Origin: a phage
Assembly: GCA_024613925.1 (NCBI GenBank)
Contig: GCA_024613925.1_4713.1
Strand: one strand, 5' to 3'
Length of the DNA stretch: 64,000 nt
Shown: positions 32,730 through 50,892 of the stretch, one piece after another
How the letters are laid out: every line of letters begins with the position of its first letter
Numbering within the stretch: position 1 is the stretch's first letter
Made by a program: the position numbers and the translations under genes
The notes under the pieces: generated by a model
What the model was told of the DNA's origin: nothing
Seen by the model: the letters and a program-made list of their open reading frames with translations, nothing else
Database searches by the model: none

Positions 32730-33089
32730 TTGCTGTTAGCGCGTAAAGGCGACGGCGGCATGAAACTGAACATCGAAATGGGTATTGCGTACGATACCAT
32801 GTTTGGTTTGTACGACCGCGTTAACGAATGGACACCGTTGAAATGGGTGGCTCAGCATCCCGCTGAAGATCCCTGGGACAGATTAGGGATTAAACCCTTA
32901 ATCGAGGATTATGTTCGATTCGGTATTAAAGAGTTCATGACGCTGGATGCGTTTTTAAAAGCACCGTATCCTTACGCGCAAACGGTACTCAAAATCGCAC
33001 AAGACGAACTGCGGAAACGTAGTGCGGTACTGGACGACGATGAGGACAAGTTACGACGAGAAGAAGAACGTTTACGAAACGGAAAATAA
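32730..33089 (+). CDS. Downstream ORF, either a frameshift extension of 30982..32667 or a separate small gene
   Basis: Track start is TTG with no convincing ribosome-binding site; frame is open upstream to 32556. Confidence 0.35.
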   Translation: MLLARKGDGGMKLNIEMGIAYDTMFGLYDRVNEWTPLKWVAQHPAEDPWDRLGIKPLIEDYVRFGIKEFMTLDAFLKAPYPYAQTVLKIAQDELRKRSAVLDDDEDKLRREEERLRNGK

Positions 33090-33090
33090 A

Positions 33091-33600: not shown

Positions 33601-33611
33601 TGCAACGGTAA

Positions 33612-33653
33612 CATAACCCTCTCCCTTCCCTTACGGGTTGGGAGAGGGCTTAT
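33612..33653. terminator. Bidirectional hairpin between convergent genes
   Basis: CATAACCCTCTCCC...GGGAGAGGGCTTATG extended stem, same core as the 2264 and 26450 elements. Confidence 0.5.
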
Positions 33654-33665
33654 GCTGTTATGTTA

Positions 33666-34040
33666 TTAATGTTCGTTCCAGATGGCATCTTCCGGTGGAA
33701 CAATAGGATCTTTCTTCGGCATTGATGGCACTTCATGACGATGTTTACGGAACTGCCTATCAATAACCTCACGAAGCCGGTACGCGTCAACCCATGTTGA
33801 TTTATTGAACAGCTCCAACGTCACGGTTAATCGTGTTCTTGACATTGAATAGCTTTTCTTTGCAATCAAATTGGGATAATTCAGTTGAGCGAACCACGCA
33901 CGTATCTGTGCTTCGGTAAAAGCGATGCTGTAATAACTAAGTTTACCGTCATTAAAATCGTGCGCGTGGGTGTAGCGTCCAGCGTAACGCCAGACAAGAT
34001 GCACATTCAGATCGATCCATGGTGGGGTGGTATCAGCCAT
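33666..34040 (-). CDS. Hypothetical protein
   Basis: 124-aa ORF. Confidence 0.5.
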   Translation of the reverse strand: MADTTPPWIDLNVHLVWRYAGRYTHAHDFNDGKLSYYSIAFTEAQIRAWFAQLNYPNLIAKKSYSMSRTRLTVTLELFNKSTWVDAYRLREVIDRQFRKHRHEVPSMPKKDPIVPPEDAIWNEH

Positions 34041-34049
34041 GTGTTACCC

Positions 34050-34619
34050 TCAACGATTCTTCATCACTTTACCCAGGCTTTCGATATTATCCCAAAAGCG
34101 ATTTTTACTTGGCGCATCGCCAACGATAACCGACATCAAATCGCGACGTTCACGACTGATGATGCCCTGTGATTTCCAGATCACCATCGTCCAGCAAGCT
34201 GCCAGAACGAACAGATGGTTAATGCTCGGTTTGGTTTGCGCGATGAACGCAAGCCATGCCCAGATACCGGTATATACTAGCGTCACTAAAAAGAGGGAGA
34301 TTGTCGCAATGACAACAACGAAGTTTTGGACAGCGGGTTGATTCGCGTTATCATGAATAGCGGTAAGATCGGGAAGGTTACCTTCAACTGAACTCGTTTC
34401 ATCGATTTCCAATTCTTCGATTTCTTTTCGTGTGTCGGGAGCTAATCCGGCATCATCAAGATGCTTTTTTAACCGCTGTATACTTAATCGTTGACCGACA
34501 GGAATGTTGATGTTGTCGTAACTATTAAGCGCATCAACCAGGGAGCGCCCGTCAACGAGAACCAAGCTCGCAGTACCCATTGTCTGCGGTTTTATTTTGT
34601 AAAGGTCTTTTACTTTCAT
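34050..34619 (-). CDS. Putative membrane protein
   Basis: 189-aa ORF with hydrophobic segments (FVVVIATISLFLVTLVYTGIWAWLAFIA, LFVLAACWTMVIW). Confidence 0.5.
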   Translation of the reverse strand: MKVKDLYKIKPQTMGTASLVLVDGRSLVDALNSYDNINIPVGQRLSIQRLKKHLDDAGLAPDTRKEIEELEIDETSSVEGNLPDLTAIHDNANQPAVQNFVVVIATISLFLVTLVYTGIWAWLAFIAQTKPSINHLFVLAACWTMVIWKSQGIISRERRDLMSVIVGDAPSKNRFWDNIESLGKVMKNR

Positions 34620-34640
34620 GTAGACACCACCTCCAACGTG

Positions 34641-37253
34641 TTAAGCGTCTGGTGTAAAATCAAAAGGAATGTCCGTACGAATGACATCATAGCGTTTTCC
34701 GAGGAAATAAAACTCTTCGGGAACCTGACCGGGAATAATGCTATCGCCGATGAACTGCGGATACGCCCAGATGTACTGAGTGAGTCCTTCGAACATATCC
34801 AGGTTATTTGCGTGGTTGCCCATGATACGTTTCCAGAGTTCGCGTTTATACGGTGTTTTAACATCGAACCCATAAAGCGGTGCAAGATCTTCACCAGGAA
34901 CAAATCCCAGGTAATAGTGAATCTGACTAACCGGGAAACCAAGCGTATCTCGCGGAATGGTGATCGCTTGCTCTGCCTTGGTGACATGCGTCTCAATAAT
35001 CCAGTCGTAACACTCCGAATAGAACCGATCGAATTTCTCTGGATTATACCACGCTTTGGGAAGATTCAGTTTCTCCGTGAACGCGTTCGACATGATCGTC
35101 GGCAAGAACGGAAGAATACCGGTTTTGATCTGCGTGTATTTCGATTTTACCCGGTTAACCAAATTCCAGCAACTGTATCCTAACTGTTCGTTACAAAACT
35201 CAACGTAGAGATCGTAGTCACCGCCGGATAATGGGTTGTTGATGTCACCGATGTCTGCGGCATATTTGTTGGGATATCGGTTATTGAAAGCCAGTTTGGT
35301 CTGGTAGTCGTAGATACACGGTTTGTTGTTCGCTGTATTGATCCACCACCAAGGTTCACCTACCTGCACACAAATGTCCTGGACATGAGGGTAGATGATA
35401 TCAGCGAATGCCGTTAACACATCCCCTAACCACGCCATCGCCTGTTGGTTACATGGAGACAGCAACCAAGATGGTGGCGTATATCCGGTTGCTGCGATGT
35501 TTCCTTCCCAATCCTGCTGCGCCCACTCGAACGGGCATGCGGTACTCATCAATTCGTAACTTAAACTGATGGTGACAGAGAAATGGTGTTTTGCAGCATA
35601 TGCGGCGAAAGCTTCATGCCACGCAATACAGGCCGGATTTAATACATCCGTGGTGTTTACCAGTAACTTACCTGCACTTGGCGTCCAGACAGTATCGTAG
35701 AAATGCGACATGCCAACATAATGCACTAATTCATCTTGATATCCCGCATAAACCAGGTTCTCAAATACGCGCTCCGGCGTGATGTTGTAATGGTCATCAT
35801 AAGCAGTTATCGCACGAAGTTCGTGTGGTGTACAGTGGTGGCGACTAACCGTCATTTCCTGATACACCCCATCGATAGGAAGAATCTCGAGGGTTAAGCC
35901 GAGGTCGATTGGCGTTTCCAGATAGGTCGTTTCAGTCGCACCTTCCTTATAATGTCGAGAACTCATGCTGAACATCAACGACGCTACCGATTCGAGTTCG
36001 ATAGGCTCGTCAGCATAGAACCCCGCCATTGCGTCATTGAAATCGATCGTCACGATTGCGCTTCTACCGTCTTCAGAGACATCGGTCGCATATCGGGTTA
36101 ATGAGATATACTGACGGCTATCGTCTTTGTGTACGACGGTTAAAACCGGCGGGTGTTCGGTATCTGCAAAGTTACGCTGGTCGCCAGTAAACGTGACCTT
36201 CGCTTTAAAGATCAAACCGAGTAACGATGTCATGGGATCATACGCAATACTGCCGTGATCCAGCGTATCCGTTGTCCGCCATTCTATCCCGACCAACCCG
36301 TTAGCGGTATGGCATCGCATATACGCATTAAGTGTCATGTCCTCACTGACAACCGCGAAGTTCTCTGTTGACTGACCGTTGATAATCCAATACATCGGTT
36401 GCCAGAGGTTACGCGTACCTTTTGCGTAGTGGTAGGTTGGTGCGCCTTTGGGATTGCCATTATTAAGATGAAATACAGCAGTACCTTGATAATGGTCGTT
36501 CGTATTAATCGGAACACTGTAAGCATCACCGAGGTCCGTACGTTCGACCTTCGTGACTGTTGCGTTTTCAAACAACCCACGTAACGCCGGTAAACCGATA
36601 TCTTCAGGTGCGTTTTCTCGACGAATCGCATCCGCGATGCGGTGGGCTAAGGCGGGGTAAATGGCATCACCCTGTTGTAGGTTTGCAAGACCTACAAAGC
36701 GATCGGGGTCGATGCCAGCAATCAATAACTCAACATCACCCTTCGTTCTATCGTTGTGAAGATATTTCAGTCCAGTAAGATCGAGGTGCTGAATAAGCGA
36801 CAACAGGTTGTATTTACGGTTTTCAACAGTTAGTACAAGATCGCCTGCCCAAACCAAACTTCCCTCATCCGCTGTTACTTTAACGGATTGTCGGCCTGTG
36901 GTAGACGTTGTTGTCGTTTTATTTAATTGTCCTTGTAGGAAGTCGGTTGCGAGGTCAAAGGCAATGCCGTAACGGTCAGCGACCGCTTGCATGATTTCAC
37001 GTAACTGGGTATCTTCTTCAATGATAATCTTGACAGGTATTCCCAAGAACGCTTTAGCGAGGTCTCGTTTAACCAACGAGACGAATACGGATTTGTAGTA
37101 TCGACTTCCATCTTTCCCTTTAAAAAGAATGGAGGTTGTTTCGGGTGACGATAGAATACGCGCAAATTCAACATCGTCGAAAGTAAGAGAAAGTCCGTTT
37201 TTCTCGTTGACCAATCTTAGTATTTCATTTTGCGCGGTTTCATGTAACTTCAT
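34641..37253 (-). CDS. Tail fibre or tailspike protein with conserved N-terminal anchor domain and aromatic-rich C-terminal domain
   Basis: N-terminal block ..RDLAKAFLGIPVKI..YGIAFDLATDF shared with three other genes; C-terminus rich in W/Y (GEPWWWINTANNKP). Confidence 0.6.
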   Translation of the reverse strand: MKLHETAQNEILRLVNEKNGLSLTFDDVEFARILSSPETTSILFKGKDGSRYYKSVFVSLVKRDLAKAFLGIPVKIIIEEDTQLREIMQAVADRYGIAFDLATDFLQGQLNKTTTTSTTGRQSVKVTADEGSLVWAGDLVLTVENRKYNLLSLIQHLDLTGLKYLHNDRTKGDVELLIAGIDPDRFVGLANLQQGDAIYPALAHRIADAIRRENAPEDIGLPALRGLFENATVTKVERTDLGDAYSVPINTNDHYQGTAVFHLNNGNPKGAPTYHYAKGTRNLWQPMYWIINGQSTENFAVVSEDMTLNAYMRCHTANGLVGIEWRTTDTLDHGSIAYDPMTSLLGLIFKAKVTFTGDQRNFADTEHPPVLTVVHKDDSRQYISLTRYATDVSEDGRSAIVTIDFNDAMAGFYADEPIELESVASLMFSMSSRHYKEGATETTYLETPIDLGLTLEILPIDGVYQEMTVSRHHCTPHELRAITAYDDHYNITPERVFENLVYAGYQDELVHYVGMSHFYDTVWTPSAGKLLVNTTDVLNPACIAWHEAFAAYAAKHHFSVTISLSYELMSTACPFEWAQQDWEGNIAATGYTPPSWLLSPCNQQAMAWLGDVLTAFADIIYPHVQDICVQVGEPWWWINTANNKPCIYDYQTKLAFNNRYPNKYAADIGDINNPLSGGDYDLYVEFCNEQLGYSCWNLVNRVKSKYTQIKTGILPFLPTIMSNAFTEKLNLPKAWYNPEKFDRFYSECYDWIIETHVTKAEQAITIPRDTLGFPVSQIHYYLGFVPGEDLAPLYGFDVKTPYKRELWKRIMGNHANNLDMFEGLTQYIWAYPQFIGDSIIPGQVPEEFYFLGKRYDVIRTDIPFDFTPDA

Positions 37254-37275
37254 TAAAAACCTCAGCCCTTTAGAA

Positions 37276-37917
37276 TTAAATGTACTGCTTACCGCCCACG
37301 AAGGAAGTTAACCAGTTACCCGAAACAAGCTGCGAAGCCCAGCCAGGCACTGCCCTACCATTCTGGCTCATGATGTTACCACACCAACCAGGGAATCCGG
37401 GACGGATGTAATAGAAAGTTAAATTGTAGAGATGGCAATTCCATACCGCAACGTTATGTTTACCAGAAACCGCTTTAAAGACAAACGCAACGGGTAAAGG
37501 CGACGATAACAATTCAGTCACAGGAACAGCTGACCAGTTCGCATTCGCGTTCCACGGCTGCCATGTGTGTTTGCGCGAGTCACAGTTAACGTTACCGTTG
37601 TTACCGCGCCCACCCGCATGCCACCATAGCGACGGACTCATGTTCTTAAGTGAGGTAAATTGCTGCGGTGGAATATTAGGAATGATAACAGGGTTGGTAC
37701 CTTGTCCGTGTTTCTTTTCTTTTGCGTTTACATACCCACTTATCGATTCGAGGTATTTGACACCAGGATAATTGTTCTGGACTTGTGTCGCAATATCACG
37801 AACGTCGAACGTCCAGCAGATCATGGTGTTGTAGTAAGCGTCGGTGTTATCGTGCCATGAGTTACCATCTTGTAAACGTGCGCCGCTATTCGGTGTTTTA
37901 TCTGTACTTATAGCCAT
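37276..37917 (-). CDS. Hypothetical Trp-rich protein in the fibre cluster
   Basis: 213-aa ORF. Confidence 0.5.
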   Translation of the reverse strand: MAISTDKTPNSGARLQDGNSWHDNTDAYYNTMICWTFDVRDIATQVQNNYPGVKYLESISGYVNAKEKKHGQGTNPVIIPNIPPQQFTSLKNMSPSLWWHAGGRGNNGNVNCDSRKHTWQPWNANANWSAVPVTELLSSPLPVAFVFKAVSGKHNVAVWNCHLYNLTFYYIRPGFPGWCGNIMSQNGRAVPGWASQLVSGNWLTSFVGGKQYI

Positions 37918-38055
37918 GGTCTTGTCCTATACGTTGGTGGTTGAAATGGCGGATATCGGATGCATGCTGGACGTGAACCCTATAATTCGCGCTATCGCCA
38001 TTTTCTACCTCGTTTCTATTCTCAAAAAGGAAATTTCATACGATGACGCCATAGC

Positions 38056-38090
38056 AGCTCCTCCTTCCCTGACGGGTTGGAGGAGCATAC
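38056..38090 (-). terminator. GC-rich hairpin downstream of the lipoprotein gene
   Basis: GCTCCTCC ttccctgacgggtt GGAGGAGC with CATAGCA flank. Confidence 0.35.
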
Positions 38091-38094
38091 TTAA

Positions 38095-38601
38095 TTACTT
38101 ACTGATAACCTCAACGGAATCCGGGTCGGCGATCAGCGCACGATCGGTAGAACAATTGAAGAAGACCATACCAACACCATCACCGTTCGAGTTCAGGGTT
38201 GAACTTGCGTAAGACAGGGTTGGTTTATTCATGCGGTAGAAGCGTTCGCTGGTTGTGGTATTGAACCCCAGATCAACGTAGTCTTTCACCGTGGTGTACA
38301 ACTGTGTGGACTCGAAAACGGTTACCGGAGAGTCAACGGTAAACTGACTGCCTTCATCCACAACCAGAACTTTATCGTTCCAGATTTCAGTGGTTGAGAA
38401 CTTCGGTTTCCAATGTTCGAATTCCTGGGTTGCACCCCAGCAAGAATACACAGCGAGATTGCTGTTCTTCTCGACAGGTTTCAACCCCACCAGTTGTGTC
38501 AGGTCTTTATCCAGGTTCGGTAAACCTTCCAGCGTAGCACACCCACCCAGAGAAAGCACCATCAACATACCAAGAACGATCGTGCAAAGTTTCTTCATCA
38601 T
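38095..38601 (-). CDS. Putative lipoprotein (superinfection-exclusion candidate)
   Basis: N-terminus MMKKLCTIVLGMLMVLSLGGCAT: signal peptide with lipobox-like LGGC; sits between fibre genes. Confidence 0.55.
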   Translation of the reverse strand: MMKKLCTIVLGMLMVLSLGGCATLEGLPNLDKDLTQLVGLKPVEKNSNLAVYSCWGATQEFEHWKPKFSTTEIWNDKVLVVDEGSQFTVDSPVTVFESTQLYTTVKDYVDLGFNTTTSERFYRMNKPTLSYASSTLNSNGDGVGMVFFNCSTDRALIADPDSVEVISK

Positions 38602-38641
38602 CGGATTTCCTTATGTGTAACGGGAGTGATCTCCATAGTAA

Positions 38642-39226
38642 TTACACAGTTGTAGGAAATTCCGGCCAATCGATATTTGGTGCTGTTGATGTGTCAACGC
38701 GATGCAGAGCCACCCGATACTTTTTCCATGCCGTCAACATGGACACCTCTTCTTCCGTTGCGATCTCCAGATCCACAGCATCCTGAAGTGGCGTAATATG
38801 ATCATTCGCCGCCTTCATCAGACTGTTTTTTGTTTCTTCCGCCTCCCGGATCCGGAACAGTTTTTCTGCTTCCGTATCCTTCACCCAGGCTGTGCCGTCC
38901 CACTTCTGAAACTCCCCTTCCGGCGATAACCAGGTAACATTTTCCGGTAACGGACCGAGTTCAGAAATAAATAACGCGTCGCCGGAAGCCACGTCATAAA
39001 CCGTTTTACCCCGATGATCTTCAACGAGATGCCACGATTCATTTTCATTGTTAAAAACTGCCACAAAACCAGCAGGAATTTCCGGTGGGGCGATATCTGT
39101 AGAATTAGCTGGCAGACCTGTATGAGGCGGAATATATGCATCACCTTCACCAATAAATTCATTAGTTCCGGCCAGCAGATTATAAATTTTTATGGTCCGT
39201 GGTTGTTCACTCATTCTGAATGCCAT
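38642..39226 (-). CDS. tfa: Tail fibre assembly protein (lambda Tfa family)
   Basis: [39 protein letters not shown]... matches the lambda/E. coli prophage Tfa chaperone as recalled from memory; directly follows the fibre gene with start/stop overlap. Confidence 0.85.
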
Positions 39227-42200
39227 TATGCAAGCCTCACGATGTAGTTAAATGCAATGTTTTTGACGGTGTTTTCCGCGTTACCCGTAGCGTTAACGGT
39301 GATGGTGTGTCCATGTGATCCAATCGCAACCGAGTGCGTATGCGCACCAATACCTACAGTATGTGCATGTGCGCCAGAACTTGCTGCAGTACCAGACAGC
39401 GAGTGGGTATGTGCTCCATCTGATGATGTCTTCCCTGATATACGGGTCATACCTGAGCCACCTTCCAGTGGTACAATTGGTGCTTTGACTGAAACCTGGG
39501 TATAACCGTTAGGAAAGAGTGCACCATTATTAGAATTCGTATATGGTCCAGAACTCCGGTGTTGGTGCCCACCTGCACTATTTGCAGTCCCGCTCACACT
39601 GTGTGTATGTGCCCCGGTGTTATTCGTGGATTTAGTGCCGTAATCAAACGACGATGTGGTTTTCGTCCCCAAATCCGTATTGGATGCGCTGGCGCTATGG
39701 TTGTGCGATTTTATGCCGTCCTGTTCCTGAGACAATACGGCACGACCACTGGCAGGTTTGCCCTTAATCGTCCAGCCACGCATATCAGGAATAACGCCTG
39801 ACGGATAAGCCACTGCAAGTTTCGGGTATACAGATTTGTCAAAAGTCTGCCCTTGCATCAGAGCATAACCAGACGGAACGGTATCTGAAGGCCATGGAAT
39901 AGGCGCGCCAACAGGCAACTCCGGAGGTGCGGTAAACTCACCCAACTCCTTTATTGCCTCAATAAGTAGAGCTATTTGGGCAGAGATAGAGACCGTTAAA
40001 ACGTCCTCACCATTAGCGTCTTTATAAGTAGAAACTGCTTCAGGTAACACTTTTTGTAAGGTTTGTGCTACAACGCCAACCTCACGATGAACATTAGTGG
40101 ATTTAAAGTTCTCCTTTTTGTCGTATATTAAACCTGACAATTTCTTTACCTTCTCCAATGCATTAGTTATTGGAGAGAAATTACTTTTCAGCCGGGCGTC
40201 TGATCGTGTATAAACTTCGTTAAAGTTACCGTTCCCATCACAATCTATATTTCCAGTAACGTTGAGAGGTACATAGCTTTGAACAGCCTCTCTCGTAAAG
40301 CGTAAAACGTGGTCATAATCGGCGTAAACATCTAGAACGCCGTCCCCGTTCTGCTTAAAGCCGGTGTCATCATCCCCTAAAGCTATGGAGTTCTCACCTA
40401 AATGATTCTCGGTTCCAATACCCAGATTATCGCTTAAAATACTATCAATAGCAAATATTGAATGAGAACAATAAAACCCTCGTCCATTGTTAAAATCCAA
40501 AATGGTTTGTGCGTTCGTGCTTTCTGTCGCGGGATTAGTTGCTCCCCACTTATAGGTTGTTTGACCGACGGTATAATTCTTGGTCGGAACACTAACCGAT
40601 AACCCTTCTTCGGCAAAAACTTGAATAGGGAAAGCCCTACCTTCGACGTAAAAAACGCTGCACACATCATCATCTTCCGCACCTGTTACAATGGAATGGA
40701 TTGCGCGCTCATCAGTATCATATATCGAAAAATACCCTGCTGCGTATGAACCACGATCAGTCCAACCGCCCGGCATTACCGTTCCATTGAATTCGCAGTT
40801 ATTCATTGCATAATCACCACTGGCAGATGTGGTTGTAATAACCACTCTGGAAGCCAGTTCGCCAGTGCTACCAGTGGAACGCCGGAAAATAACTGGATAC
40901 CACTTTCCGCCAACGGCTTTAGACGGCGCGTTAAATACGTACTGCCGCATTCCTTTTTTCTTATCCACCTCGTCTTTGCTGTAAACATTAATGTTACTCA
41001 GGAAGCGACCCTTATCAGGAATATCTGCGCCGTTAGAACTGCGTTGCATAGCGCCCGCAGCTTTATCAACAGTGGTTTTCAAACCCAGGAAGTTAATGAT
41101 ATCGGCCGTCGACCCTTTCGCTAACAAATCACGCGCAGTCGAGGTGAAATCCGCTAACCCTACCTGATTACTACCGGTAAAATAAGGGAGTTTATTCGCT
41201 TCTGTTGTTAGGTTAGACCACGCCGTGAGCAGCGCGTTCAAAGGTTGTTTACCCGCCAACGTATTGGTTATTGTCGTTGCGAAATTAGGATCGTTCCCTA
41301 AAGCTTGAGCCAGCTCATTAAGCGTATTTAGCGCTTCTGGAGACGAGTCGATCAGTGATGCGATAGCACGCATCACAAATTCCGTGTTGGCAATCTGTCG
41401 ACTGCTATCGTTCTCTGCAGCCGTAGGCGCTGCCGGGATACCGGTGAACACAGGGCTATTAAGATCTGCCTTGAGAGCGATGAGACGTTTAAGTGCGTCG
41501 ACATCGACTTTCAGGTTTTCCCATCCGATGAGAGAACCACCACTGCTGGCATGGTAACGGTTGTACCAGAAGTCACCGTTAACGCCTAAAAAGAATATTC
41601 CCTTCTCTTCGTTTTGTGGGCCGGAACTATTTCGTGACGAGCTGATGTAATTGATTTCAATGAGGCCGTTAAACGTCACTCCCGGGATGATTTTGTTGTC
41701 TCCAGCCGACTGTGATACCTGGTAAATCCCCGGGGTTGCGGCTTTGACCCATGTTAAGAATTCTGTTACTCCAGCGGTACCGCTGAAATTCTTAACGTCG
41801 GTAAGTATTGCCCCATAACCGAACATACCGGGTAGAGCCACTCGTCCGTTGGTGCGGTCACGAATATCTGTTGCAACAACAGGCAATTGTTTACGAACGG
41901 CATTAACCGCTTTAGGCGTGGCCGATTTTGTCTCGTCGTCGCTATCGGTTTCATTACTTAGAATAGTTAAACCGCGCGTAGCAGTCGTTGCATCAGGAAG
42001 AAATGCGTTATCCAACACCTTAAGCTGTATTGCACTCGTATTACTAACAACGACATGCACCTGACAGTTAAGAACGCTGGTTGCGCCTTCGGTAGGCGTA
42101 GGCTTATATCTTTCTGGCGCACTGCAGACGGCAATCAGAACACCTTGGTCATCATACAAACCGATCTCACGTACCCAGAACCCACCTTGACCAGCAGGAA

Positions 42201-42438
42201 TAATACCCTCAACGATAATCCTGGTTGTGCTGTCACCATCCGCATGGATATTAGAAACTTCCCCACGATAAACTTCGTGAACAAGCGCTGTTTGGCTGGC
42301 GTTCGGGGTTGGGATCGAGCCGTTACCATCACCAACGGCAAAGTGTGTGATTTTTAGTTTCTCACCGTCGGGAAGTAACGCAGCGGTGATACGTTCTGCT
42401 CCTTTATCGGTAACTACCGTTATATATGCTGTACTCAT
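39226..42438 (-). CDS. Tail fibre protein, mosaic: P2 gpH-like N-terminus and lambda Stf-like His-x-His C-terminal tip
   Basis: N-terminus ..[20 protein letters not shown].. and collar motif [26 protein letters not shown]; C-terminus [53 protein letters not shown]. Confidence 0.85.
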
Positions 42439-42444
42439 GGTGTT

Positions 42445-42972
42445 TTATCCTGGATAAATAGTGATGATATCACCAATGACGGTTGTGGCACCGGCGTAAA
42501 GATGAGCCGGGGATACATCGTGTTGGTTTGTCACAGTAAGATCCAATCGACCACGCCAAACCATGGAGGTATTCGCGATGGGGATAGAGATCTTTTTGGA
42601 TATATCGTCACGAAAATCAATAACAGTGGCAAGGGTAACTGCATCAAAATCGACGTCGGGGTCAAAGACGAACCCGTATCGATCTGAAATCGCCCGAATA
42701 ATCGCATGTATAGTTGTTGTCTCAACGGACTCTAAAACGATTTTTACCGGTATTCCTAAAAATGCCTTCGCGATATCGCGTCGAGCGTAAACGATAAAAC
42801 TTTCACCGCACCACTTTGTTCCTTCATTTGCTGTGACGATCACTTTTGCCCTGTTAGCACCAGAACTCCCATCCAATGTTAATGTAAGATCGGAGCTGCT
42901 GAACACGCTACCGTTACGTTGGTTTATCAACGTAATCAGTTCGTCTTTCCATGGCGGGTAAAGTGAACGCAT
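42445..42972 (-). CDS. Small fibre-associated protein with the conserved N-terminal anchor domain
   Basis: Start moved to ATG at 42972 (MRSLYPPWKDEL) with GGAGGAGGG ribosome-binding site; RRDIAKAFLGIPVKI..YGFVFDPDVDF block. Confidence 0.55.
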   Translation of the reverse strand: MRSLYPPWKDELITLINQRNGSVFSSSDLTLTLDGSSGANRAKVIVTANEGTKWCGESFIVYARRDIAKAFLGIPVKIVLESVETTTIHAIIRAISDRYGFVFDPDVDFDAVTLATVIDFRDDISKKISIPIANTSMVWRGRLDLTVTNQHDVSPAHLYAGATTVIGDIITIYPG

Positions 42973-43127
42973 AAGCGCACCCTCCTCCAACAATCAAATT
43001 AAATTGTAAACGCCTCGAGACCGGAGTGCGATTCGAGGTAAACGTAAACAGTCCAGACGACCGCATAAAATTCCGCGCATATTGCCCCTCTATCCCGACA
43101 AAGCGAGATAGAGGGAGGATAATACTT

Positions 43128-44882
43128 TTATGCTGCTACGTATCCCGGCCAACGTTCTCTTGGCCAGTTTGTTGCGCCCTGCCCAACGTTGTCCTTACCA
43201 GAAATTACATTACTTACGTCCCAACCGCTAAGGTCTTGGTTAAATGCGGTGTTATCGCGCATCATGAGATCGATCTCACGTAGTGACTGGGTATTCCAGC
43301 CGGAAATGTCTTGGTTAAATGCTTTATTGGAGGCAAACATGTTAGTCACGTTCTGTAATTTTGATGTGTTCCAACCACCGATATCACTATTGAACGACGT
43401 GTCCGAGAACATGCCTGCGGCGTTAATGAGGCTGTCTGTTTTCCAGTTAATCAGCTTGTCACCATCGAGCGCCCTGCAACCACCGAACATAAAACTCATA
43501 TCGTTAACTTTGGATACATTCCATTTATCTAACCCGTTACCAACGAACGCGTAACAAGACTGGAACATCCAGCTCATATCGGTAACCCGACTCACATTCC
43601 ATTTACTGAAGTCGAGGTTAAGTTTCTGACACCCTAAGAAGGTTTCACACATACTGGTGATACGACTAACATCCCACTCTTGGATGTTGGGGTCGTTAAG
43701 CGTCGTTAAATAGTTGAACAATTTGTCTAACGACGTCCATTTCTCTGGGATACGGTTTGGTACTGTATGAAGCGATGAAAGGTTATTGGTTGATGGAGAG
43801 CGGAACATGCCGTTATCCCAATTTACGATCTCCGTAATTTCGTACCCTCTGATCGTCTGAGTAGCGTAACCATCTTTCACCGTACCTGTAGCGACGATGG
43901 TATATTCACCAGTGTCCGCATAATCGTGGACGTAGGCATTGTTGCTGGCGGTCTCCGTCGTCTTAGTCCCATCACCCCAATCGATATTGACGTTATCCCA
44001 CCCACCTAGTTTGAACTGTACTTTGCCTCCGGTGGCTTTTAGGATGTATTTACCCCCATTGTCTGTATAATAACAGACAACCATTGGACCGTACAGATTA
44101 CCTATCTGCCAATCATCCTTTTGCGTTATTGCGATTTGCGCCGCACCACGCTGTACGAAGAGTACCGTACGATTCTCGGCAGTCTGTAATGTGGTTATTG
44201 CCTGAGCCTTATCGTCCTCGCTAATTTCACCAGACACCACTAAAGCGCTTAACATCCTTTCGAAGTATTCGATCGGTAACTCAGCTCCAACAGACTTATC
44301 AACAGACTGTACAGCAAGATCACCCAATGCTGCAGTGGTAGCCAATGCCAATGAACCCTTGGTCATATCTGTTTCTTGGATGTAATGCAGTCCCGTAAGC
44401 TGGTACGCTTGAATAATAGTAATCAGGTTCAGCGTATCGTTAACGACCTGTACTTGTAAATACCCGGACCACACATAGCTGTCTTCGGCAATTAGTAGAT
44501 CGACTGACTGAATACCTGATGTTTCAAAGGTGATCTTCTCATTAAGATCGGTTTCCAGGAAATCAACCGCGAGGTCGAAATTAATGCCGTACTTTTCAGC
44601 GATGGAATCTACGATATTTCTTAAAGTAACATCTGTGCTTACGATAAAACGTAACGGAATTCCTGTAAACGCTTTAGCAATGTCTCGACGAACATACGTA
44701 AGCGATTGTTCGAAGAAATACGGGCTGTTATCTCCAGGCTTGATGGTTACCTGGCACACTTCAGGATATTCGGCTGGGATGAACGATTCGAATTTAACAT
44801 CGGATTCTTTCAACGAAAGATTGTTATTCCGGTTCACTAACGCCAGAAGATCGGCTTTCCATCCGGGGTAAACTGTAGACAT
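43128..44882 (-). CDS. Tail fibre with N-terminal anchor domain and C-terminal DUF285/BspA-like repeats
   Basis: Start moved to ATG at 44882 (MSTVYPGWKADL, GGAG upstream); C-terminal repeats WDVSRITSMCETF / WNVSRVTDMSWMF / WNVSKVNDMSFMF / WNTSKLQNVTNMF / WNTQSLREIDLMM / WDVSNV. Confidence 0.65.
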   Translation of the reverse strand: MSTVYPGWKADLLALVNRNNNLSLKESDVKFESFIPAEYPEVCQVTIKPGDNSPYFFEQSLTYVRRDIAKAFTGIPLRFIVSTDVTLRNIVDSIAEKYGINFDLAVDFLETDLNEKITFETSGIQSVDLLIAEDSYVWSGYLQVQVVNDTLNLITIIQAYQLTGLHYIQETDMTKGSLALATTAALGDLAVQSVDKSVGAELPIEYFERMLSALVVSGEISEDDKAQAITTLQTAENRTVLFVQRGAAQIAITQKDDWQIGNLYGPMVVCYYTDNGGKYILKATGGKVQFKLGGWDNVNIDWGDGTKTTETASNNAYVHDYADTGEYTIVATGTVKDGYATQTIRGYEITEIVNWDNGMFRSPSTNNLSSLHTVPNRIPEKWTSLDKLFNYLTTLNDPNIQEWDVSRITSMCETFLGCQKLNLDFSKWNVSRVTDMSWMFQSCYAFVGNGLDKWNVSKVNDMSFMFGGCRALDGDKLINWKTDSLINAAGMFSDTSFNSDIGGWNTSKLQNVTNMFASNKAFNQDISGWNTQSLREIDLMMRDNTAFNQDLSGWDVSNVISGKDNVGQGATNWPRERWPGYVAA

Positions 44883-44922
44883 AAGCACTCCAAAGTTCAT
44901 GGGGCGGTAACCGCCCCGTTGG

Positions 44923-47900
44923 TTAAATTGTTGGTTTAATATCGCGTAATAGGGCAATATAATAGCCTAATCCTCGGAGGATCTCTCCACTCCAGAAACC
45001 AAAATACATTCCGTCTCTGCCGAGATTAGCGCTATCTGGTGCAGGACTCCACCCACCATTCATTACGTCATCAACGGTGTAGCGGTTGATGTAGTTCTCA
45101 ACGATTTCGTTATACGCATTAACCGCAACAGAATAGCCTTTATCGTTGGGATGTCCGTACAACATTGCTAACGACGCACCCGCCAACCATAATCCTGCCA
45201 TATGACCAGTAAAATCATTAGGGATAAAAGCAGGGGGTTTATCCATCGGAAAATCCGTAGGAGATTGATAAGCGTTTTCCTGTTGATACGTAAACAAGAA
45301 ATCGATCCAATGGCTGATGTAAGTGGTTAACTTCTCAGGGACGGCTAAACCACGATCGAGCAGTCCAGCATAAAGCCTCACCGCTGAGAAGAAAGCCCTC
45401 GGCTGATAACCAGACCATGCCGTCTGATCGCCGAAGTGGTACATCGTAAAATCATTAACTTTTGATCCGCTTGGCGCATCCCAACGATCCCACACGTACG
45501 CACTTGCCCCTGGCCCTAAAACCCCGAATTTCTGATAATACCACTGCTGCGAGTCATACCAGAAATTCACAACATTCTGAATCATGAGGTCACGTCGTTC
45601 AGCCGATACGTCCATATCCAGGAAGACCCATGGATGTTGGTAGCCGGGATAAGGCTGACCACGCCAACTGTCGAACGTCGGTGCGTTAGGGACATAGTTG
45701 TTCGAGAACGGAATAATACCCGGAGTATAAGGCAATGGATCCAGACGTTGGTTGACAATCGTACAATCGCCAACACGCAGTGTGCCCTCCGCCTCAAAGG
45801 TTGCTTTTAACGTAAACAGCATGGTATATCCGTCATCCGTGGTGTAAGTTGACGGTGGATTGTTGATGGCGTAAAGCTTAAATACCCCTTCAGCGATATC
45901 GCCGTCGTCAGGCAAGAACAGAATTTCAGTTGAACCATCGCCCCACACAGGTGCAGAAGGTTTAGGGTCAGTATCAGCGTGGCCCGGTTGATACCCTGAG
46001 AGCGTCCATCCGTTCGCCGAAAGCGTCAATGTATTTCTTGCTGTGGTGGCCGGTAGCATATACCACCATCGCCAGCCGTTTGTATCTTCTACACGAACGT
46101 TGTAGTCAATCGACGCGAAATAACTGACCTGCCTTACGATCTGTTTTGCGGTCGGATTGAATTCAAATTGCCCGCCTGCCGCAGTAAGCTGCGCTTTTAG
46201 GAACAACCCATCCCAGGAATCTTCCACCGCTTCGCTGAATTCTGTTGTGATGGCGACATCATCTTTCCAGCCGACTTTATCAGCCGATATCAACACAGAA
46301 CCTGTAACAGCATCGCCGGTTGGCGTTGAAGCTTCATCAACCGCATCAGCAGGAATCAACGAGCCTATTTTGAAATCCCATTCTTTCGGCTCGGCACTGG
46401 AAGGTAACACCAGCTTGTACGTTTTGGCTTTCGCTTCGGTTTTGTCCAAAGAAAGCGATAATGAGATCTCAACCGGAATTGCAATACCCGCTGTATCTTT
46501 ACCACCGCAGGTTACACGAAGAATTGAATCACGATTGACGCGGAACGGAATAGCCTGCTGTTCAAGGTAAATTTGTGCTGAGGATGCTTGAATCACGATC
46601 CAGCCGTCAGTATCACGTGTAATTGTGAACGGTGCTTTCGATGGATAGGTATACGTGTAAGCGATACCGTCGGTGTCGTAACGATCGGTTCCTTTTACCT
46701 GACGGAAGAACTTATCGTTGGCGTCGATACGAGTATATTCTTCAATCGTAAACAACGATGCCTTGTACGCTTTCTGATAGCGCTCCTGCTGCGTTAAACT
46801 GTATAAGGTGTAGGCTGCTTCACAAAACCACTGTTCAGCGTCTGACGCGTTTCCCATGTAGTCTCTGGTGACCGGCACCTGGATCGGTCGGTTATGCTGA
46901 CACTCGTTCGTTTTGATGAGGTATCCGCCATATTCAACAGGAACGCGGGGTGCCCACGCAACCAAATAAGAACCGCTGACGGACTTATCTTTGAGTACGA
47001 TGGTGCCCACCTCATCGTCAGTACACGCTTCAAGATCGTCCCCGCCCACACTTACGTATCGTTTTGTGCGTAACGCAACTTTCTCGATAGGGAACACCGT
47101 ACCCTTTGTATCCCAGTCAATCGTCCCATCATCATTGGTTTTGAACACATCGGCGTTCAAATTCTGCCAGCCGAGTTTACCCTCATAGACCTGAACAACA
47201 AGATCCATGTATTCCCCGAACGTTGGTGCCCCATGTGTTATTTTCCCGATACCGTTGGTGAATGTAACCGCGGTGTCATGGAAACCGCCATGTGTCGGGT
47301 AATCGTTTTTTGCAAGAGGATAATGGGCCAACACCGGCTGTTTACCATTAACAATCCAGTTAGCGATCCAGCGTGCCGGTGTATCCGGTGGTTCAAGACC
47401 CGCATAGAACGCTTTTATATACGCATCGAACGATGCCTCCGCTAATGTGAGATAGTGCGCTTTAAGCTTGGTATCATCCGTTGTATGACTGAATATACCC
47501 GCACCCAGAATTAACAACGACTGTCCTTCTGTTGTTGCGTCACCATCCGGTTGTGCTTCTTGTCGTGTTGCTGCAATGAAATGACGGTTGTTTACCATGA
47601 CCCCGCTTTCATTTAACACGTAATGATCGGTTTCTGGATCGGTAAACGTTCCTGTGTTTCGGGTTAAGAATCTTGCATGGCCATAACCAACGAAATTAAC
47701 CGGCGACGCTGTAATCATCCATTTACCGATAAGTTGAGCAACATCATTATAACGCTCGGATGCGGTGATTTGTTTCACGTACCAGTCTTTACGGTTAAAT
47801 GTCCAAAGCAGGAAGTAATAAGTTGTATCGATTTCCATCACTGGGAACGTCGGCGTTAACGGCTCCAGCATTAAGTAGTTGCTCCAGTCAATCTGTCCGC

Positions 47901-48519
47901 CAACAACCGATGGGGTAATCTCTAATAACTGACACCATTCATAACGGTCCGGTACACTACTGGACGTTGTTGGTAAAGGTAACTTGTATACGCCGGTACG
48001 ATTCAGATCGAACGCTTTTCTAGCCGATCCTAAATCAACATAAATACTCGATGATGCGCTTGCACTATACGCTCCCAAAGCACCTAGCGTTGACCGATAC
48101 ATTGAGATGAACAACGTATCTTTCCAGTACGGGTTATCCTTGGTTGGTTCTAAAGCGATTTGTGCGGAGATGCTGTTCTGTGTCCCTAACTGGTATGTTG
48201 CATTTAAAGATTCTTCCGTGAAATAACTTTCTGCAATTGCCAGATGGAACTGCTCGTTCAATAATGCGAGTGCGGCGCGTCCAGTAACATCCTCATTACC
48301 GGTTTCTTTTTTCATGATCGCGCCGAACGGAAACAATGTCGCGAATGACCGTTTTGGTTTATTAACCGTAACCGTCCCTGTGTAATTTCCAACACCATCA
48401 AGTTTTTGACTATCGCCAACAGCAGTGACTGCGATACCATCAGCCGGGATATCTGTTTTATTTAGTATATTGAGTTGGTCAACCAGATCCTGCTTATCGT
48501 CAGGTAAGAATGTCGCCAT
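44923..48519 (-). CDS. Large tailspike or fibre protein (1198 aa)
   Basis: Strong AAGGTGGAG ribosome-binding site; very long ORF next to fibre genes; Gly/Trp/Tyr-rich. Confidence 0.65.
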   Translation of the reverse strand: MATFLPDDKQDLVDQLNILNKTDIPADGIAVTAVGDSQKLDGVGNYTGTVTVNKPKRSFATLFPFGAIMKKETGNEDVTGRAALALLNEQFHLAIAESYFTEESLNATYQLGTQNSISAQIALEPTKDNPYWKDTLFISMYRSTLGALGAYSASASSSIYVDLGSARKAFDLNRTGVYKLPLPTTSSSVPDRYEWCQLLEITPSVVGGQIDWSNYLMLEPLTPTFPVMEIDTTYYFLLWTFNRKDWYVKQITASERYNDVAQLIGKWMITASPVNFVGYGHARFLTRNTGTFTDPETDHYVLNESGVMVNNRHFIAATRQEAQPDGDATTEGQSLLILGAGIFSHTTDDTKLKAHYLTLAEASFDAYIKAFYAGLEPPDTPARWIANWIVNGKQPVLAHYPLAKNDYPTHGGFHDTAVTFTNGIGKITHGAPTFGEYMDLVVQVYEGKLGWQNLNADVFKTNDDGTIDWDTKGTVFPIEKVALRTKRYVSVGGDDLEACTDDEVGTIVLKDKSVSGSYLVAWAPRVPVEYGGYLIKTNECQHNRPIQVPVTRDYMGNASDAEQWFCEAAYTLYSLTQQERYQKAYKASLFTIEEYTRIDANDKFFRQVKGTDRYDTDGIAYTYTYPSKAPFTITRDTDGWIVIQASSAQIYLEQQAIPFRVNRDSILRVTCGGKDTAGIAIPVEISLSLSLDKTEAKAKTYKLVLPSSAEPKEWDFKIGSLIPADAVDEASTPTGDAVTGSVLISADKVGWKDDVAITTEFSEAVEDSWDGLFLKAQLTAAGGQFEFNPTAKQIVRQVSYFASIDYNVRVEDTNGWRWWYMLPATTARNTLTLSANGWTLSGYQPGHADTDPKPSAPVWGDGSTEILFLPDDGDIAEGVFKLYAINNPPSTYTTDDGYTMLFTLKATFEAEGTLRVGDCTIVNQRLDPLPYTPGIIPFSNNYVPNAPTFDSWRGQPYPGYQHPWVFLDMDVSAERRDLMIQNVVNFWYDSQQWYYQKFGVLGPGASAYVWDRWDAPSGSKVNDFTMYHFGDQTAWSGYQPRAFFSAVRLYAGLLDRGLAVPEKLTTYISHWIDFLFTYQQENAYQSPTDFPMDKPPAFIPNDFTGHMAGLWLAGASLAMLYGHPNDKGYSVAVNAYNEIVENYINRYTVDDVMNGGWSPAPDSANLGRDGMYFGFWSGEILRGLGYYIALLRDIKPTI

Positions 48520-48532
48520 TATTTACTCCACC

Positions 48533-49363
48533 TTAATCGTAACTAAAATAAAGTTTGCTGCTGACGCCGCTATCGGAATGAGGTTTTAACACCAGAACAG
48601 AGCTTCCGAACGACGGAAGTATTGGAACATCTAAATCGTTCGCGTCAGCAACTTTTCCATTATAAACGACACTGGCTGTTGTGATGAGTTCCCAAGCTGA
48701 GGTATAACTCATTGAAATCAGCGATGAGGCTAAACGGAATGCGTTGTATCCTTCTGGACTATCTCCAACCGACATCGAACGTATCGCATCTTGCGGCGGT
48801 AAATTTAGCTTGATACCGTAAGTGCTGAATGTGTGGAAATCCCCTTGTTTACTATCTTCTGGATAGTACGAGGTTAGTGGTTCTCGCACCGTAAACAGTT
48901 CGCTAATATCGGTACTTACCGCTTTTCGTGCGAGGAATTGAAACGTACCGTACCACGATGCCGATGCATCAGAACGAACGGGAACAGATATGGTTTTCTC
49001 GCCGCTTTCAAATTTAACCTGTGATGCTAACGCTGAAGAATCAAAGATCGTTAAATCGATCTTCAACCCATACTTCTTAAACAGCTGCGTTAAGCAATCT
49101 GCTATCGTCGTCTTATCAGCAACGACAATAAAAGGTTGGTGTTTGATAAAGAGCTTATTAATGTCTCGACGTTGAAGATAAACCTGTACGGGGTCTTCGA
49201 CGTAGTAAACCGATTGTGGTGCGGGGGCTATAGAAAGGCGTAACCGACCCGATGCACCATACCAGGCTGGCGTTAACGTAATGTCTGACAGGGATAACGG
49301 ATGCTGGAGATAGGTGTTTATTTTAGATAACACTTCCTCCTGCCATGATGCTTCAGGATACAT
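48533..49363 (-). CDS. Fibre-associated protein with the conserved N-terminal anchor domain
   Basis: ..YLQRRDINKLFIKHQPFIVV..YGLKIDLTIFD resembles the anchor block; GAGG ribosome-binding site. Confidence 0.55.
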   Translation of the reverse strand: MYPEASWQEEVLSKINTYLQHPLSLSDITLTPAWYGASGRLRLSIAPAPQSVYYVEDPVQVYLQRRDINKLFIKHQPFIVVADKTTIADCLTQLFKKYGLKIDLTIFDSSALASQVKFESGEKTISVPVRSDASASWYGTFQFLARKAVSTDISELFTVREPLTSYYPEDSKQGDFHTFSTYGIKLNLPPQDAIRSMSVGDSPEGYNAFRLASSLISMSYTSAWELITTASVVYNGKVADANDLDVPILPSFGSSVLVLKPHSDSGVSSKLYFSYD

Positions 49364-49420
49364 GCTGACCTCATAGATGATCGTTGATAGGAAAGAGACC
49401 TAATTCATACCATGGGAACC

Positions 49421-49476
49421 TTAAAAAAAAGAAAAATAGGAAAACGGTGTTCATCCTTTTAGGGATGAACACCGTG
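49421..49476 (-). terminator. Rho-independent terminator (minus strand)
   Basis: 13-bp stem ACGGTGTTCATCC/GGGATGAACACCGT followed on the minus strand by a long U-rich run. Confidence 0.65.
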
Positions 49477-49494
49477 TACCGTTATATCGAACGA

Positions 49495-50070
49495 TTAATG
49501 AGGAATCAGATCGTTAAGCTTTTCTTCTTCAATGACAAAGAAGTTGTTCTGGTCGTCTAAATCTGTTAACAGGACTTGCCCAACAGTAAAGCAAGTTCCG
49601 CCTTTCTTAGGCACCCATACAGGCTCGTTCGTTACCTTATCGGGATACCATTTGAAACGATTGGTATCTAAGAAGAACGCTGCTTTGTTCGCTTTATCGG
49701 TTGAACGATAGCTAACTAGCGCAGGCCACTCAATCCAGGTGTTTGTGCACGGCACATGTAAAGGATACCATGCGCGCCAGCGTTTGCCTGGCCTGTTAGG
49801 ATCAACCCAATACTCGGCAGTCAATACAGCATCTTTATAATGTTTCTGCATTAACATTTCGAGCACAAGCTCATTGCCTTTTGATGCGTCTAAAGTCACT
49901 TCCGTCATATAAAGAGATTTAGGTAATTCAGACTGTTTTGCGGGTGTTACAACACCGGTAACCAACGGTCTGCTCGGTTTACGTTTCTGTTCTTTCCGAC
50001 GTGTGTAAAAGAATAGTCCGATAGATACAGCAACAAGTATAATAAACAACACTACCTTAATCCAACTCAT
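49495..50070 (-). CDS. Hypothetical protein with N-terminal transmembrane helix
   Basis: MSWIKVVLFIILVAVSIGLFFYTRRK..; 4-bp overlap with upstream gene. Confidence 0.5.
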   Translation of the reverse strand: MSWIKVVLFIILVAVSIGLFFYTRRKEQKRKPSRPLVTGVVTPAKQSELPKSLYMTEVTLDASKGNELVLEMLMQKHYKDAVLTAEYWVDPNRPGKRWRAWYPLHVPCTNTWIEWPALVSYRSTDKANKAAFFLDTNRFKWYPDKVTNEPVWVPKKGGTCFTVGQVLLTDLDDQNNFFVIEEEKLNDLIPH

Positions 50071-50855
50071 TCGTCAATATCTCCTTCCACAAACAGAGTC
50101 AATTTGATTTCAGGGTCATAGAACATGGTAATCACATCATCTTGCTCTACTGAACGCTGTGCTGTCCATATTAACTGTTCATCCCGAATATCAAATTTAT
50201 GTCGTTCGTCACTCACCACAGCTTCCGCATCAACGTAGTGGTAAACATCACCGAGAGGATTCTCAATCCAGCCGCGTACCATCAAACGTTCTTTTTGTTT
50301 ACGTGTAAAGAAGCGATAAGGATCTTCGCACGTGCGCCACACGTCCCCGTTCTCGTTAACCAACTCATCATAAACTTTAGAGAGTTCGTCGGGTACCGGA
50401 ATCAAAATGTTATCTTGATAGTTCGACCAGAAACAACGTACATCTTGGATCAACTCATCGCCTGGGAGTTTAGTCGCTATGTTACTATAATCGATTTCAA
50501 CAGTATCGATATCAGGACGGGTAAACGGAAGAGCGTCTAGGTTTCCCACCATGACCTCGATACTATCATGATGAACACGAATCCATCCATCGAACCATCT
50601 GTACCCATCAGCTTGATATAACGTTGTGTGATAAGTGACGACGTTAATATCCTCGAACGATTCTAATAAGGCTTTAGCGGCTAAAAGCGGCGAAAAGTTC
50701 TTTGATTGTCCTGGTTTACGTATTTCTTCTTTGATGAACAATTTACCAAGCGCCGGGTGTTCGATAACAAAACCACAGGAGAGCATGATGCTTCCTTGAT
50801 AACGTGCTTCTTGCATTTTCCATTCCTTAAACAAAGTGTGTCTTTTACGCGACAT
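50067..50855 (-). CDS. Hypothetical protein
   Basis: 262-aa ORF. Confidence 0.5.
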   Translation of the reverse strand: MSRKRHTLFKEWKMQEARYQGSIMLSCGFVIEHPALGKLFIKEEIRKPGQSKNFSPLLAAKALLESFEDINVVTYHTTLYQADGYRWFDGWIRVHHDSIEVMVGNLDALPFTRPDIDTVEIDYSNIATKLPGDELIQDVRCFWSNYQDNILIPVPDELSKVYDELVNENGDVWRTCEDPYRFFTRKQKERLMVRGWIENPLGDVYHYVDAEAVVSDERHKFDIRDEQLIWTAQRSVEQDDVITMFYDPEIKLTLFVEGDIDE

Positions 50856-50892
50856 GATTACTAGTACACAGGTTACTGAATTTCTGTAAAAG

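Follow-up and report, generated by a model that had tools for sequence, protein, structure and literature searches.

DUF7941 proteins in the tail-fibre cluster of a Goslar-like phage: a locus variant of a published chimallivirus family

We analysed a stretch of 64,000 nucleotides from a Goslar-like jumbo phage of E. coli (NCBI GenBank assembly GCA_024613925.1, contig GCA_024613925.1_4713.1; hereafter the window), in which a gene cluster on the minus strand contains five genes for proteins with a DUF7941 domain, a divergent and likely one in the case of g1198: g276 (48533..49363), g1198 (44923..48519), g584 (43128..44882), g175 (42445..42972) and g870 (34641..37253). We consider it rather probable that, as members of the chimallivirus DUF7941 family, these proteins have accessory roles in host recognition, are attached at the outer baseplate rim and are chained head-to-tail. 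The family was defined in Escherichia phage vB_EcoM_Goslar (Goslarvirus, Chimalliviridae; 237 kb) in a study by cryo-electron microscopy and mass spectrometry of virions, with gp22, gp23, gp31, gp33, gp34, gp86, gp91, gp92, gp93 and gp161 as members (Basu et al., bioRxiv, 22 April 2026; 10.64898/2026.04.21.720040). Our finding is essentially this published family. For four of the five (g870, g175, g1198 and g276) the orthologues are already treated in the preprint, and the window adds a further member and comparative detail, no new principle; as a locus variant of a family published in April 2026, the cluster is of value mainly as comparative material.

Chimalliviruses are candidates for phage therapy since the phage nucleus shields their genome from many host defences. 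Little is understood of how they recognise their hosts, and neither the Goslar map nor the phiKZ map resolves the peripheral baseplate. If DUF7941 modules generally attach accessory binding or cutting domains, cassette variants such as those described below would be natural experiments that link heads to host range, and the module could be used for grafting new specificities.

In megablast the window matches Goslar at ~95-96% identity and corresponds to Goslar positions ~61.4-124.2 kb. Within the region it is collinear with Goslar at 33001-38683, 41174-43139 and 44886-51000, and two stretches have no Goslar counterpart, namely 38684-41173 (fibre tip and chaperone) and 43140-44885 (the DUF285 gene g584). 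All five open reading frames are present at the coordinates given above. The cluster is transcribed in the order g276, g1198, g584, g175, the 1070-aa long tail fibre, the tail-fibre assembly chaperone Tfa, g168, g213 and g870.

The DUF7941 module and its members

An initial annotation, made from the letters of the window, had proposed an N-terminal block common to g870, g175, g584 and g276. This block was recovered by BLASTP among the cluster proteins, with E values of 7e-22 (g175-g870), 1e-21 (g175-g584), 2e-34 (g584-g870, over ~250 residues, with g584 aligned through residue 259), 1e-10 (g175-g276) and 2e-8 (g276-g584); judged by these alignments it is common to the four proteins far beyond chance. 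It corresponds to Pfam PF25613 (DUF7941), with scores of 154.4 bits for g870, 86.0 for g584, 59.0 for g175 and 34.5 for g276, all above the gathering threshold, which is 27 bits for this family as well as for PF23845 and PF23844 used below. The motifs quoted in the annotation (WKxE/DL, RRDIAKAFxGIP and YGxxFDxxVDF) are visible in the alignment, and the four proteins fall in PHROG families 1037 and 2935 ("virion structural protein").

BLASTP from the shared-block proteins to the long fibre, Tfa, g213 and g168 gave no similarity, and a six-frame scan of the whole window with hidden Markov models (HMMs) built from the four copies returned no further DUF7941 copy. A homologue search with an N-domain profile yielded short Goslar-like proteins only, and g175 matched nothing when it was searched against contigs of bacterial and archaeal genomes. 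PF12571, the Phage_tail_fib N-terminal domain, occurs in none of the five DUF7941 proteins and is carried by the 1070-aa fibre alone (140 bits). Identity with the phiKZ gp131-135 fibre family was considered and rejected, as window-derived DUF7941 HMMs gave E > 0.07 and BLASTP no significant match. DUF7941 has been reported in Spaid-like proteins of Spiroplasma and, per InterPro, in other Spiroplasma species (PMC13375240); given this report, the statement of the preprint that the domain is exclusive to chimalliviruses may be too strong.

For g1198 the annotation had noted a loosely similar N-terminus. Compared directly with the family, this protein is not significant in BLASTP, reaches E 3.9 with the four-sequence HMM and scores 15.1 bits in Pfam, below the cutoff. 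A word-indexed homologue search with its first 300 residues returned two fragments only, and an exhaustive phmmer search of 1.84 billion representatives returned three remote relatives only. Each of these relatives matches DUF7941 collinearly at 20-27 bits, one of them at the gathering score. When the small g1198 family was aligned by hhalign with the DUF7941 N-domain alignment, residues 6-144 matched residues 5-147 with a probability of 96.8% (E 2.4e-10, 132 columns). The N-terminus of g1198 is therefore likely a divergent DUF7941 member that does not reach the Pfam threshold, and because its relatives and the hhalign comparison match the family we count five proteins with the domain.

The block had been described as N-terminal and followed by unrelated C-termini. 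The heads do differ, but in g870, g584 and g276 the shared region runs to about residue 260-280 and comprises an N-domain, a linker and a C-domain, which is the module described in the preprint (Basu et al.). The Pfam match (model of 276 positions) covers residues 2-277 of g870 and 56-275 of g276, and in g584 the module is completed by the C-domain at residues 176-260 of an AlphaFold2 model. What had been taken for a separate small C-terminal domain in g276 is actually the DUF7941 C-domain. In g175 the match covers residues 7-150; this protein, like phiKZ gp126, is an N-domain alone, and in g1198 only the N-domain was detected. The AlphaFold2 model of g584 (mean predicted local distance difference test score, pLDDT, 88.9; 72-sequence alignment) consists of an alpha/beta N-domain (1-150), a low-confidence linker (~151-175), a helical/beta C-domain (~176-260), a beta-sandwich (265-355) and a repeat solenoid (360-584). 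For g276, AlphaFold2 run on the single sequence produced no usable model (pLDDT 33). The N-domain has the fold of phiKZ gp127 residues 1-150, and stand-alone modules end at a conserved ...G..h.hY(N/D) motif.

Paralogues were compared in an alignment of the window proteins with Goslar gp22, gp23, gp31, gp33 and gp34 and phiKZ gp126, gp127 and gp143. The linker carries the motif (N/D)(L/I)xx(L/I/M)(I/V)x4 LxGLx(Y/F)...K, located at residues 152-175 of g584 and kept across eight paralogues of ~15-35% identity. The mean pairwise BLOSUM62 score is 0.60 in the linker, 0.29 in N-domain residues 1-60, 0.28 in the C-domain and 0.94 in the N-domain core (61-149). The conserved stretch coincides exactly with the lowest-pLDDT part of the g584 monomer model, and conservation combined with low pLDDT is typical of peptides that become ordered when they meet a partner. 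The preprint describes the linker as disordered; that it carries a motif conserved across paralogues is new here.

Behind the module the proteins differ. In g870, the orthologue of Goslar gp86, the DUF7941 module (36423-37250) is followed by an NCTSP_N domain (residues 284-450; 35904-36404) and a TIM barrel of the N4 gp64/gp65 type (residues 476-837; 34743-35828). This C-terminal half scores 285 bits with PF23845 and 41.1 bits with PF23844, the TIM barrel and N-domain of the N4 "non-contractile tail sheath protein", and its best PDB relative is N4 gp64 (9lc0_M, E 2.4e-29), followed by gp65 (E 2.6e-7). The N4 sheath is built of the gp64-gp65 heterodimer, in which gp65 has long been known to bind the receptor (PMC13434306). 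In g584 the N-domain (44433-44882), linker motif (44358-44429) and C-domain (44097-44357) precede a beta-sandwich (43812-44096) and repeats (43131-43811). Its head consists of 26-residue PARCEL/DUF285 repeats, detected above threshold and with the fold of a leucine-rich-repeat (LRR) solenoid, behind an immunoglobulin-like (Ig-like) sandwich. g584 is a paralogue of Goslar gp161, to which it is 46% identical and which is encoded 40 kb away in Goslar. In g1198, the orthologue of gp92, the N-domain (residues 6-144; 48088-48504) is followed by a large body. The protein falls in PHROG 2871 ("tail protein", E 1e-295), and PDB sequence searches with it, as a single sequence or as a three-sequence profile, found no relative; gp92 itself was classed as bearing carbohydrate-binding or hydrolase domains, and overall carbohydrate-binding, glycoside-hydrolase or LRR domains were assigned to Goslar gp86, gp92 and gp161 (Basu et al.).

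The two remaining proteins carry no head. g276, 97% identical to its orthologue gp93, is a complete stand-alone module with an N-domain (residues 1-150; 48914-49363) and a linker plus C-domain (residues 151-276; 48536-48913), and its C-terminus is the conserved terminal motif of the family. g175, the orthologue of gp91, has a 25-residue tail without linker motif behind its N-domain and lies 6 nt upstream of the long-fibre gene. The heads of the other three proteins differ from each other and plausibly bind or cut surface glycans.

Cassette variation among related loci

We compared 14 complete related loci, the window included, from IMG/VR, metagenomes and assemblies. Both g175 and g870 are present in all of them. 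The genes g276 and g1198 are both intact in six (the window, L002, L003, L005, L009 and L010) and both absent in eight (L006, L012, L015, L019, L020, L022, L023 and L024), while g584 is present in 11 and absent in three (Goslar, L003 and L010). As combinations, the pair without g584 was found in three loci, g584 without the pair in eight and both in three. Remnants of the pair were seen in three further loci and are different in each: in L011 (5472-8049) codon ~149 of g276 is joined to codon ~480 of g1198 out of frame, in L008 (290-886) g276 is truncated at residue ~192 and adjoins g175, and in L004 (2712-3845) the last 378 residues of g1198 alone remain. The g276-g1198 pair thus seems to be dispensable and to have disappeared independently in several ways.

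At the g584 site Goslar has 13 bp in place of the gene, with flanks conserved to the base (compared with L002, 9793-10000). Conserved hairpins lie at both borders of the g584 cassette, GGGGCGGTTACCGCCCC upstream and CCCTCTATC...GATAGAGGG downstream (window 42973-43127 and 44883-44922). The GC-rich hairpin GGGGCGGTTACCGCCCC (44901..44917, minus strand) stands directly after the g1198 stop codon and, together with the next GGAG ribosome-binding site, forms the conserved upstream boundary. Goslar retains both flanking hairpins and an orphan GGAG ribosome-binding site. Since the hairpin and the ribosome-binding site that precede g584 remain there, Goslar most likely lost the gene. Homologues of g584 with 68-91% identity occur on many contigs of 235-248 kb from E. 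coli, Salmonella, Shigella and Enterobacter samples. Three modest points are new in these comparisons: g584 is missing from this locus of Goslar, most likely through a precise deletion, yet is common in Goslar-like contigs; the 276/1198 pair comes and goes as a unit; and conservation is highest in the heads.

In g870 the TIM barrel is 97-99% identical in every locus except L003 (90%), and in g1198 the final 300 residues are 96-99% identical across related loci. The most variable genes are g584 and g175, which range from 60 to 99% and are mosaic, and the length of the long-fibre gene differs in almost every locus (834-1324 aa). The catalytic-looking C-terminal heads of g870 and g1198 are hence the best conserved parts and not the most variable ones, which is not as expected of tips that switch host range. 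A plug-socket co-evolution of g175 with the linker and C-domain of g584 was considered, as in L015 the N-domain of g584 is 68% identical and its linker plus C-domain as well as g175 are 96% identical. This idea was set aside because similar co-variation is seen for the LRR part and for the N-terminus of the fibre; simple linkage in a recombination hot spot explains it.

Proposed attachment to the virion and alternative explanations

The Goslar orthologues were found in purified virion preparations (Table S4 in Basu et al., 10.64898/2026.04.21.720040), and the possibility raised in the initial annotation that these proteins are absent from virions does not hold. The copies per virion differ widely: gp86 ~4.5, gp92 4.9, gp93 4.8 and gp91 1.2 (from two peptides), compared with 111 for gp161, 112 for gp33, 27 for gp34, 8.5 for gp31, ~580 for gp22 and ~2,140 for gp23; the long fibre gp90 is at 43 and gp87 at 19. 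AlphaFold 3 (AF3) predicts head-to-tail dimers, purified gp22 makes filaments in negative stain, and a gp126-gp127 dimer was fitted manually into unassigned phiKZ density; the authors envisage a "fibre cloud" by which the phage would first recognise its host (Basu et al.). In phiKZ the gp139 spoke "terminates at gp127", with one gp127 N-domain per spoke end and six per virion, and in PDB entry 9XQD this N-domain is a docking module of the outer peripheral baseplate (PMC13250141). The preprint gives the code as 9QXD; the entry itself is 9XQD. The spoke protein homologous to gp139, on which gp127 sits, is gp32 in Goslar, and it is flanked by the DUF7941 genes gp31, gp33 and gp34 (L016, 15788-19407). 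From this gene order it may be gp31, gp33 and gp34, not the window proteins, that directly contact the baseplate.

In the chain that we propose, the N-domain (~150 residues, gp127 fold) would be a socket, and the short flexible linker with the C-domain (~90 residues) of one protein would be a plug that docks onto the N-domain of the next. Starting where the baseplate spoke ends (Goslar gp32, phiKZ gp139), the proteins would form a head-to-tail string, with monomeric heads directed at glycans placed along its sides or at its end. On this chain g870 would hang its N4 gp64/gp65-type TIM barrel, g584 its Ig-like domain and PARCEL leucine-rich repeats, and g1198 a large glycan-binding or glycan-cutting body. 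The bare module g276 would probably be an adaptor presenting g1198, whose own N-domain has diverged, and g175, a socket without plug, could only be a chain end, as phiKZ gp126 on gp127. The long fibre (39226-42438) with its other anchor would remain the main, rapidly swapped receptor binder. Our own analysis gave the homology, the limits of the domains, the match in fold, the motif in the linker and the variation of the cassettes; virion presence, the gp22 filaments and the place of gp127 in the baseplate of phiKZ are taken from the literature; the order of the chain, the adaptor and cap roles and the glycan targets we infer.

Chaining is favoured over a single shared socket because copy numbers range from ~1 to ~2,100, some members are headless and the linker motif is conserved. 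That g276 presents g1198 is suggested by their adjacency (13 nt apart), their joint gain and loss, the near-equal copies of gp92 and gp93 and the divergent N-domain of g1198. The adaptor role of g276 and the chain-terminator role of g175 are weak parts of the proposal. More tentatively, the genes could be plug-and-play cassettes for non-trimeric receptor-binding heads, with g276 as the dedicated adaptor of g1198 and g175 as chain terminator by the long fibre; such a reading is possible, though doubtful as a whole. If true, each cassette would bring its own socket and plug and could be gained or lost without touching the baseplate, and presence/absence variants would differ in the surface glycans that they exploit.

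The initial annotation had suggested a branched adsorption apparatus with several specificities on one anchor. An attachment module with diverse heads is indeed what we find, but classical trimeric fibres standing in parallel on one socket do not agree with the range of copy numbers and with headless g175 and g276. A parallel arrangement, in which each N-domain binds the same rim site independently and mixed heads compete for few sockets, is unlikely in our estimate. It would account for the single gp127 N-domain directly on each of the six phiKZ spoke ends (PMC13250141) and for gp86, gp92 and gp93 at ~5 copies each, close to six. However, other members at ~27 to 2,100 copies are far above the capacity of six sites, g175 and g276 make no sense as parallel fibres, a partner is needed for the C-domain and the conserved motif of the linker, and gp22 by itself forms filaments (Basu et al.). 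Still less probable to us is that the proteins belong to the virion without binding receptors, their heads clearing capsule, biofilm or debris at release or stabilising the baseplate, while the long fibre alone recognises the host. The near-invariant g870 TIM barrel and g1198 C-terminal 300 residues in Goslar-like phages (96-99%), the fibre tip that differs at nearly every locus (834-1324 aa) and the K-12 screen, which for Goslar gave lipopolysaccharide (LPS) core genes only (10.64898/2026.04.02.716166), would all fit such a role. Set against this, the g870 head is homologous to N4 sheath subunits of which gp65 is a receptor-binding protein, PARCEL/LRR domains are surface-binding modules, and g584 and g175 vary more than most genes of the region (60-99%), as proteins under host selection would; moreover, K-12 has neither O-antigen nor capsule, so that glycan-directed heads would be invisible in the screen. 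Very improbable, finally, is paralogy without shared function, with duplicates that keep a common fold and low-copy members that contaminate the virion preparation. The ~1.2 copies of gp91 from two peptides and the non-virion assemblies in the preparation could be read in this way, whereas the position of the cluster between the long fibre and other tail genes, the related gp127 modelled in the phiKZ baseplate map (PMC13250141), the ~111 copies per virion of the g584 paralogue gp161 and the annotation of PHROG 1037 and 2935 as virion structural proteins speak for a role in the particle.

Several points weigh against the head-to-tail chain of host-recognition proteins. The Goslar virion preparation also held host proteins, the phage-nucleus shell and PhuZ (Basu et al.), and because of this non-virion material detection at 1-5 copies is weak evidence. 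The Goslar baseplate map resolved no density for any DUF7941 protein, and head-to-tail docking rests on AlphaFold predictions, the gp22 filaments and the manual phiKZ fit of one preprint (10.64898/2026.04.21.720040). The joint presence or absence of g276 and g1198 is trivially explained by adjacency and shared contig ancestry, and adjacency with shared descent could give the same pattern that we read as adaptor and client. Conservation is higher in the heads (96-99%) than in the modules. For Goslar, the LPS outer core is the sole receptor identified on K-12 (supplement of 10.64898/2026.04.02.716166). A role of these proteins in host-range determination is accordingly putative.

Compared with known systems, the cluster is closest to that of Goslar: g870, g175, g1198 and g276 are 97-98% identical to gp86, gp91, gp92 and gp93, and module, architectures and genomic position are common to both. 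Unlike Goslar, this phage has the extra g584 between the gp91 and gp92 orthologues, and its long-fibre tip and chaperone differ. The phiKZ proteins gp126 (147 aa), gp127 (290 aa) and gp143 (177 aa) are only ~21-23% identical to the window proteins; gp126 shares the N-domain-only architecture of g175, but all three consist of the module or part of it and have no head, whereas three of the five window members carry large heads. phiKZ gp131-gp135 likewise are paralogues with a common N-terminal attachment region and differing distal domains (PMC13250141), but they belong to another domain family and form hetero-hexameric fibre bases with a six-helix bundle. The C-terminal 400 residues of g870 are in the same TIM-barrel family as N4 gp64/gp65 (PDB 9LC0 and 9YF4), although in N4 the domain forms a six-fold sheath round a short non-contractile tail and in g870 it is fused to DUF7941 in a contractile-tailed jumbo phage. 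Multiple tailspikes are also mounted on one virion through conserved N-terminal adaptor domains in CBA120 (TSP1-4), G7C (gp63.1/gp66), phi92 and Klebsiella phage PhiK64-1. These branched systems are built of trimeric spikes that branch through dedicated adaptor domains, whereas the TIM barrel and LRR solenoid heads here need no trimers and the assembly that we propose is a linear chain.

Long fibre, chaperone and neighbouring genes

The long tail fibre (39226..42438, minus strand; 1070 aa) has PF12571, not DUF7941, as its N-terminal anchor. Over the C-terminal ~650 residues it has no homology to Goslar gp90, and the last ~230 residues are lambdoid Stf-like. It is followed by Tfa (38642..39226, minus strand), a tail-fibre assembly chaperone of the lambda type (PF02413, 146 bits; PHROG 105, E 4e-98). 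The last ~230 fibre residues and Tfa have 87-91% DNA identity to stf-tfa of lambdoid phages and prophages. The breakpoints relative to Goslar are at 38684 and 41173, and the distal part of the fibre and its chaperone are not homologous to the P1 S-like gp90/gp89 of Goslar. The LPS-core receptor of Goslar fits the P1 S-like tip of its long fibre. Fibre tip and Tfa are a horizontal swap that has probably changed the primary receptor relative to Goslar (LPS core). Within the fibre, Peptidase_S74, an intramolecular chaperone domain, lies at residues 746-802 and is followed by a collar domain and ~270 residues. Such domains are usually C-terminal and self-cleaving, so the distal tip of the fibre may or may not stay attached.

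At the upstream end of the cluster a terminator-like hairpin (49444..49475, minus strand), with a 13-bp stem and a T-run, stands immediately upstream of g276. With this strong intrinsic-terminator-like structure at its start, the cluster is set off as a transcription unit of its own. Matches to sigma-70-type promoters in the cluster were fewer (19) than in shuffled sequences (28.8) and were hence disregarded, and no tRNA genes were found in the window.

The gene g213 (37276-37917, minus strand) is the orthologue of Goslar gp87 and has no family assignment. In many related phages a second g213 paralogue of ~205-270 aa and 29-48% identity lies immediately upstream of it (for example L005 16867-17682, L006 15509-16219 and L010 11723-12463). 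It is absent from the window and from Goslar and represents another variable cassette of the cluster.

The neighbouring g168 (38095-38601, minus strand) has a lipoprotein-like N-terminus, MMKKLCTIVLGMLMVLSLGGC, an apparent lipoprotein signal peptide with lipobox that is kept in all related loci. Its orthologue gp88, at ~740 copies, is among the most abundant proteins of the Goslar preparation; its function is given as unknown and the lipobox is not mentioned (Basu et al.). g168 may be a lipoprotein of the Llp/Cor type, which would mask receptors and co-purify with membrane debris, or it may be a true component of the virion that is lipidated. Downstream of g870, a 189-aa protein (34050-34619, minus strand), the orthologue of Goslar gp85 (~4.6 copies per virion; Basu et al.), has a hydrophobic, probably membrane-spanning C-terminal half and is conserved in all related loci.

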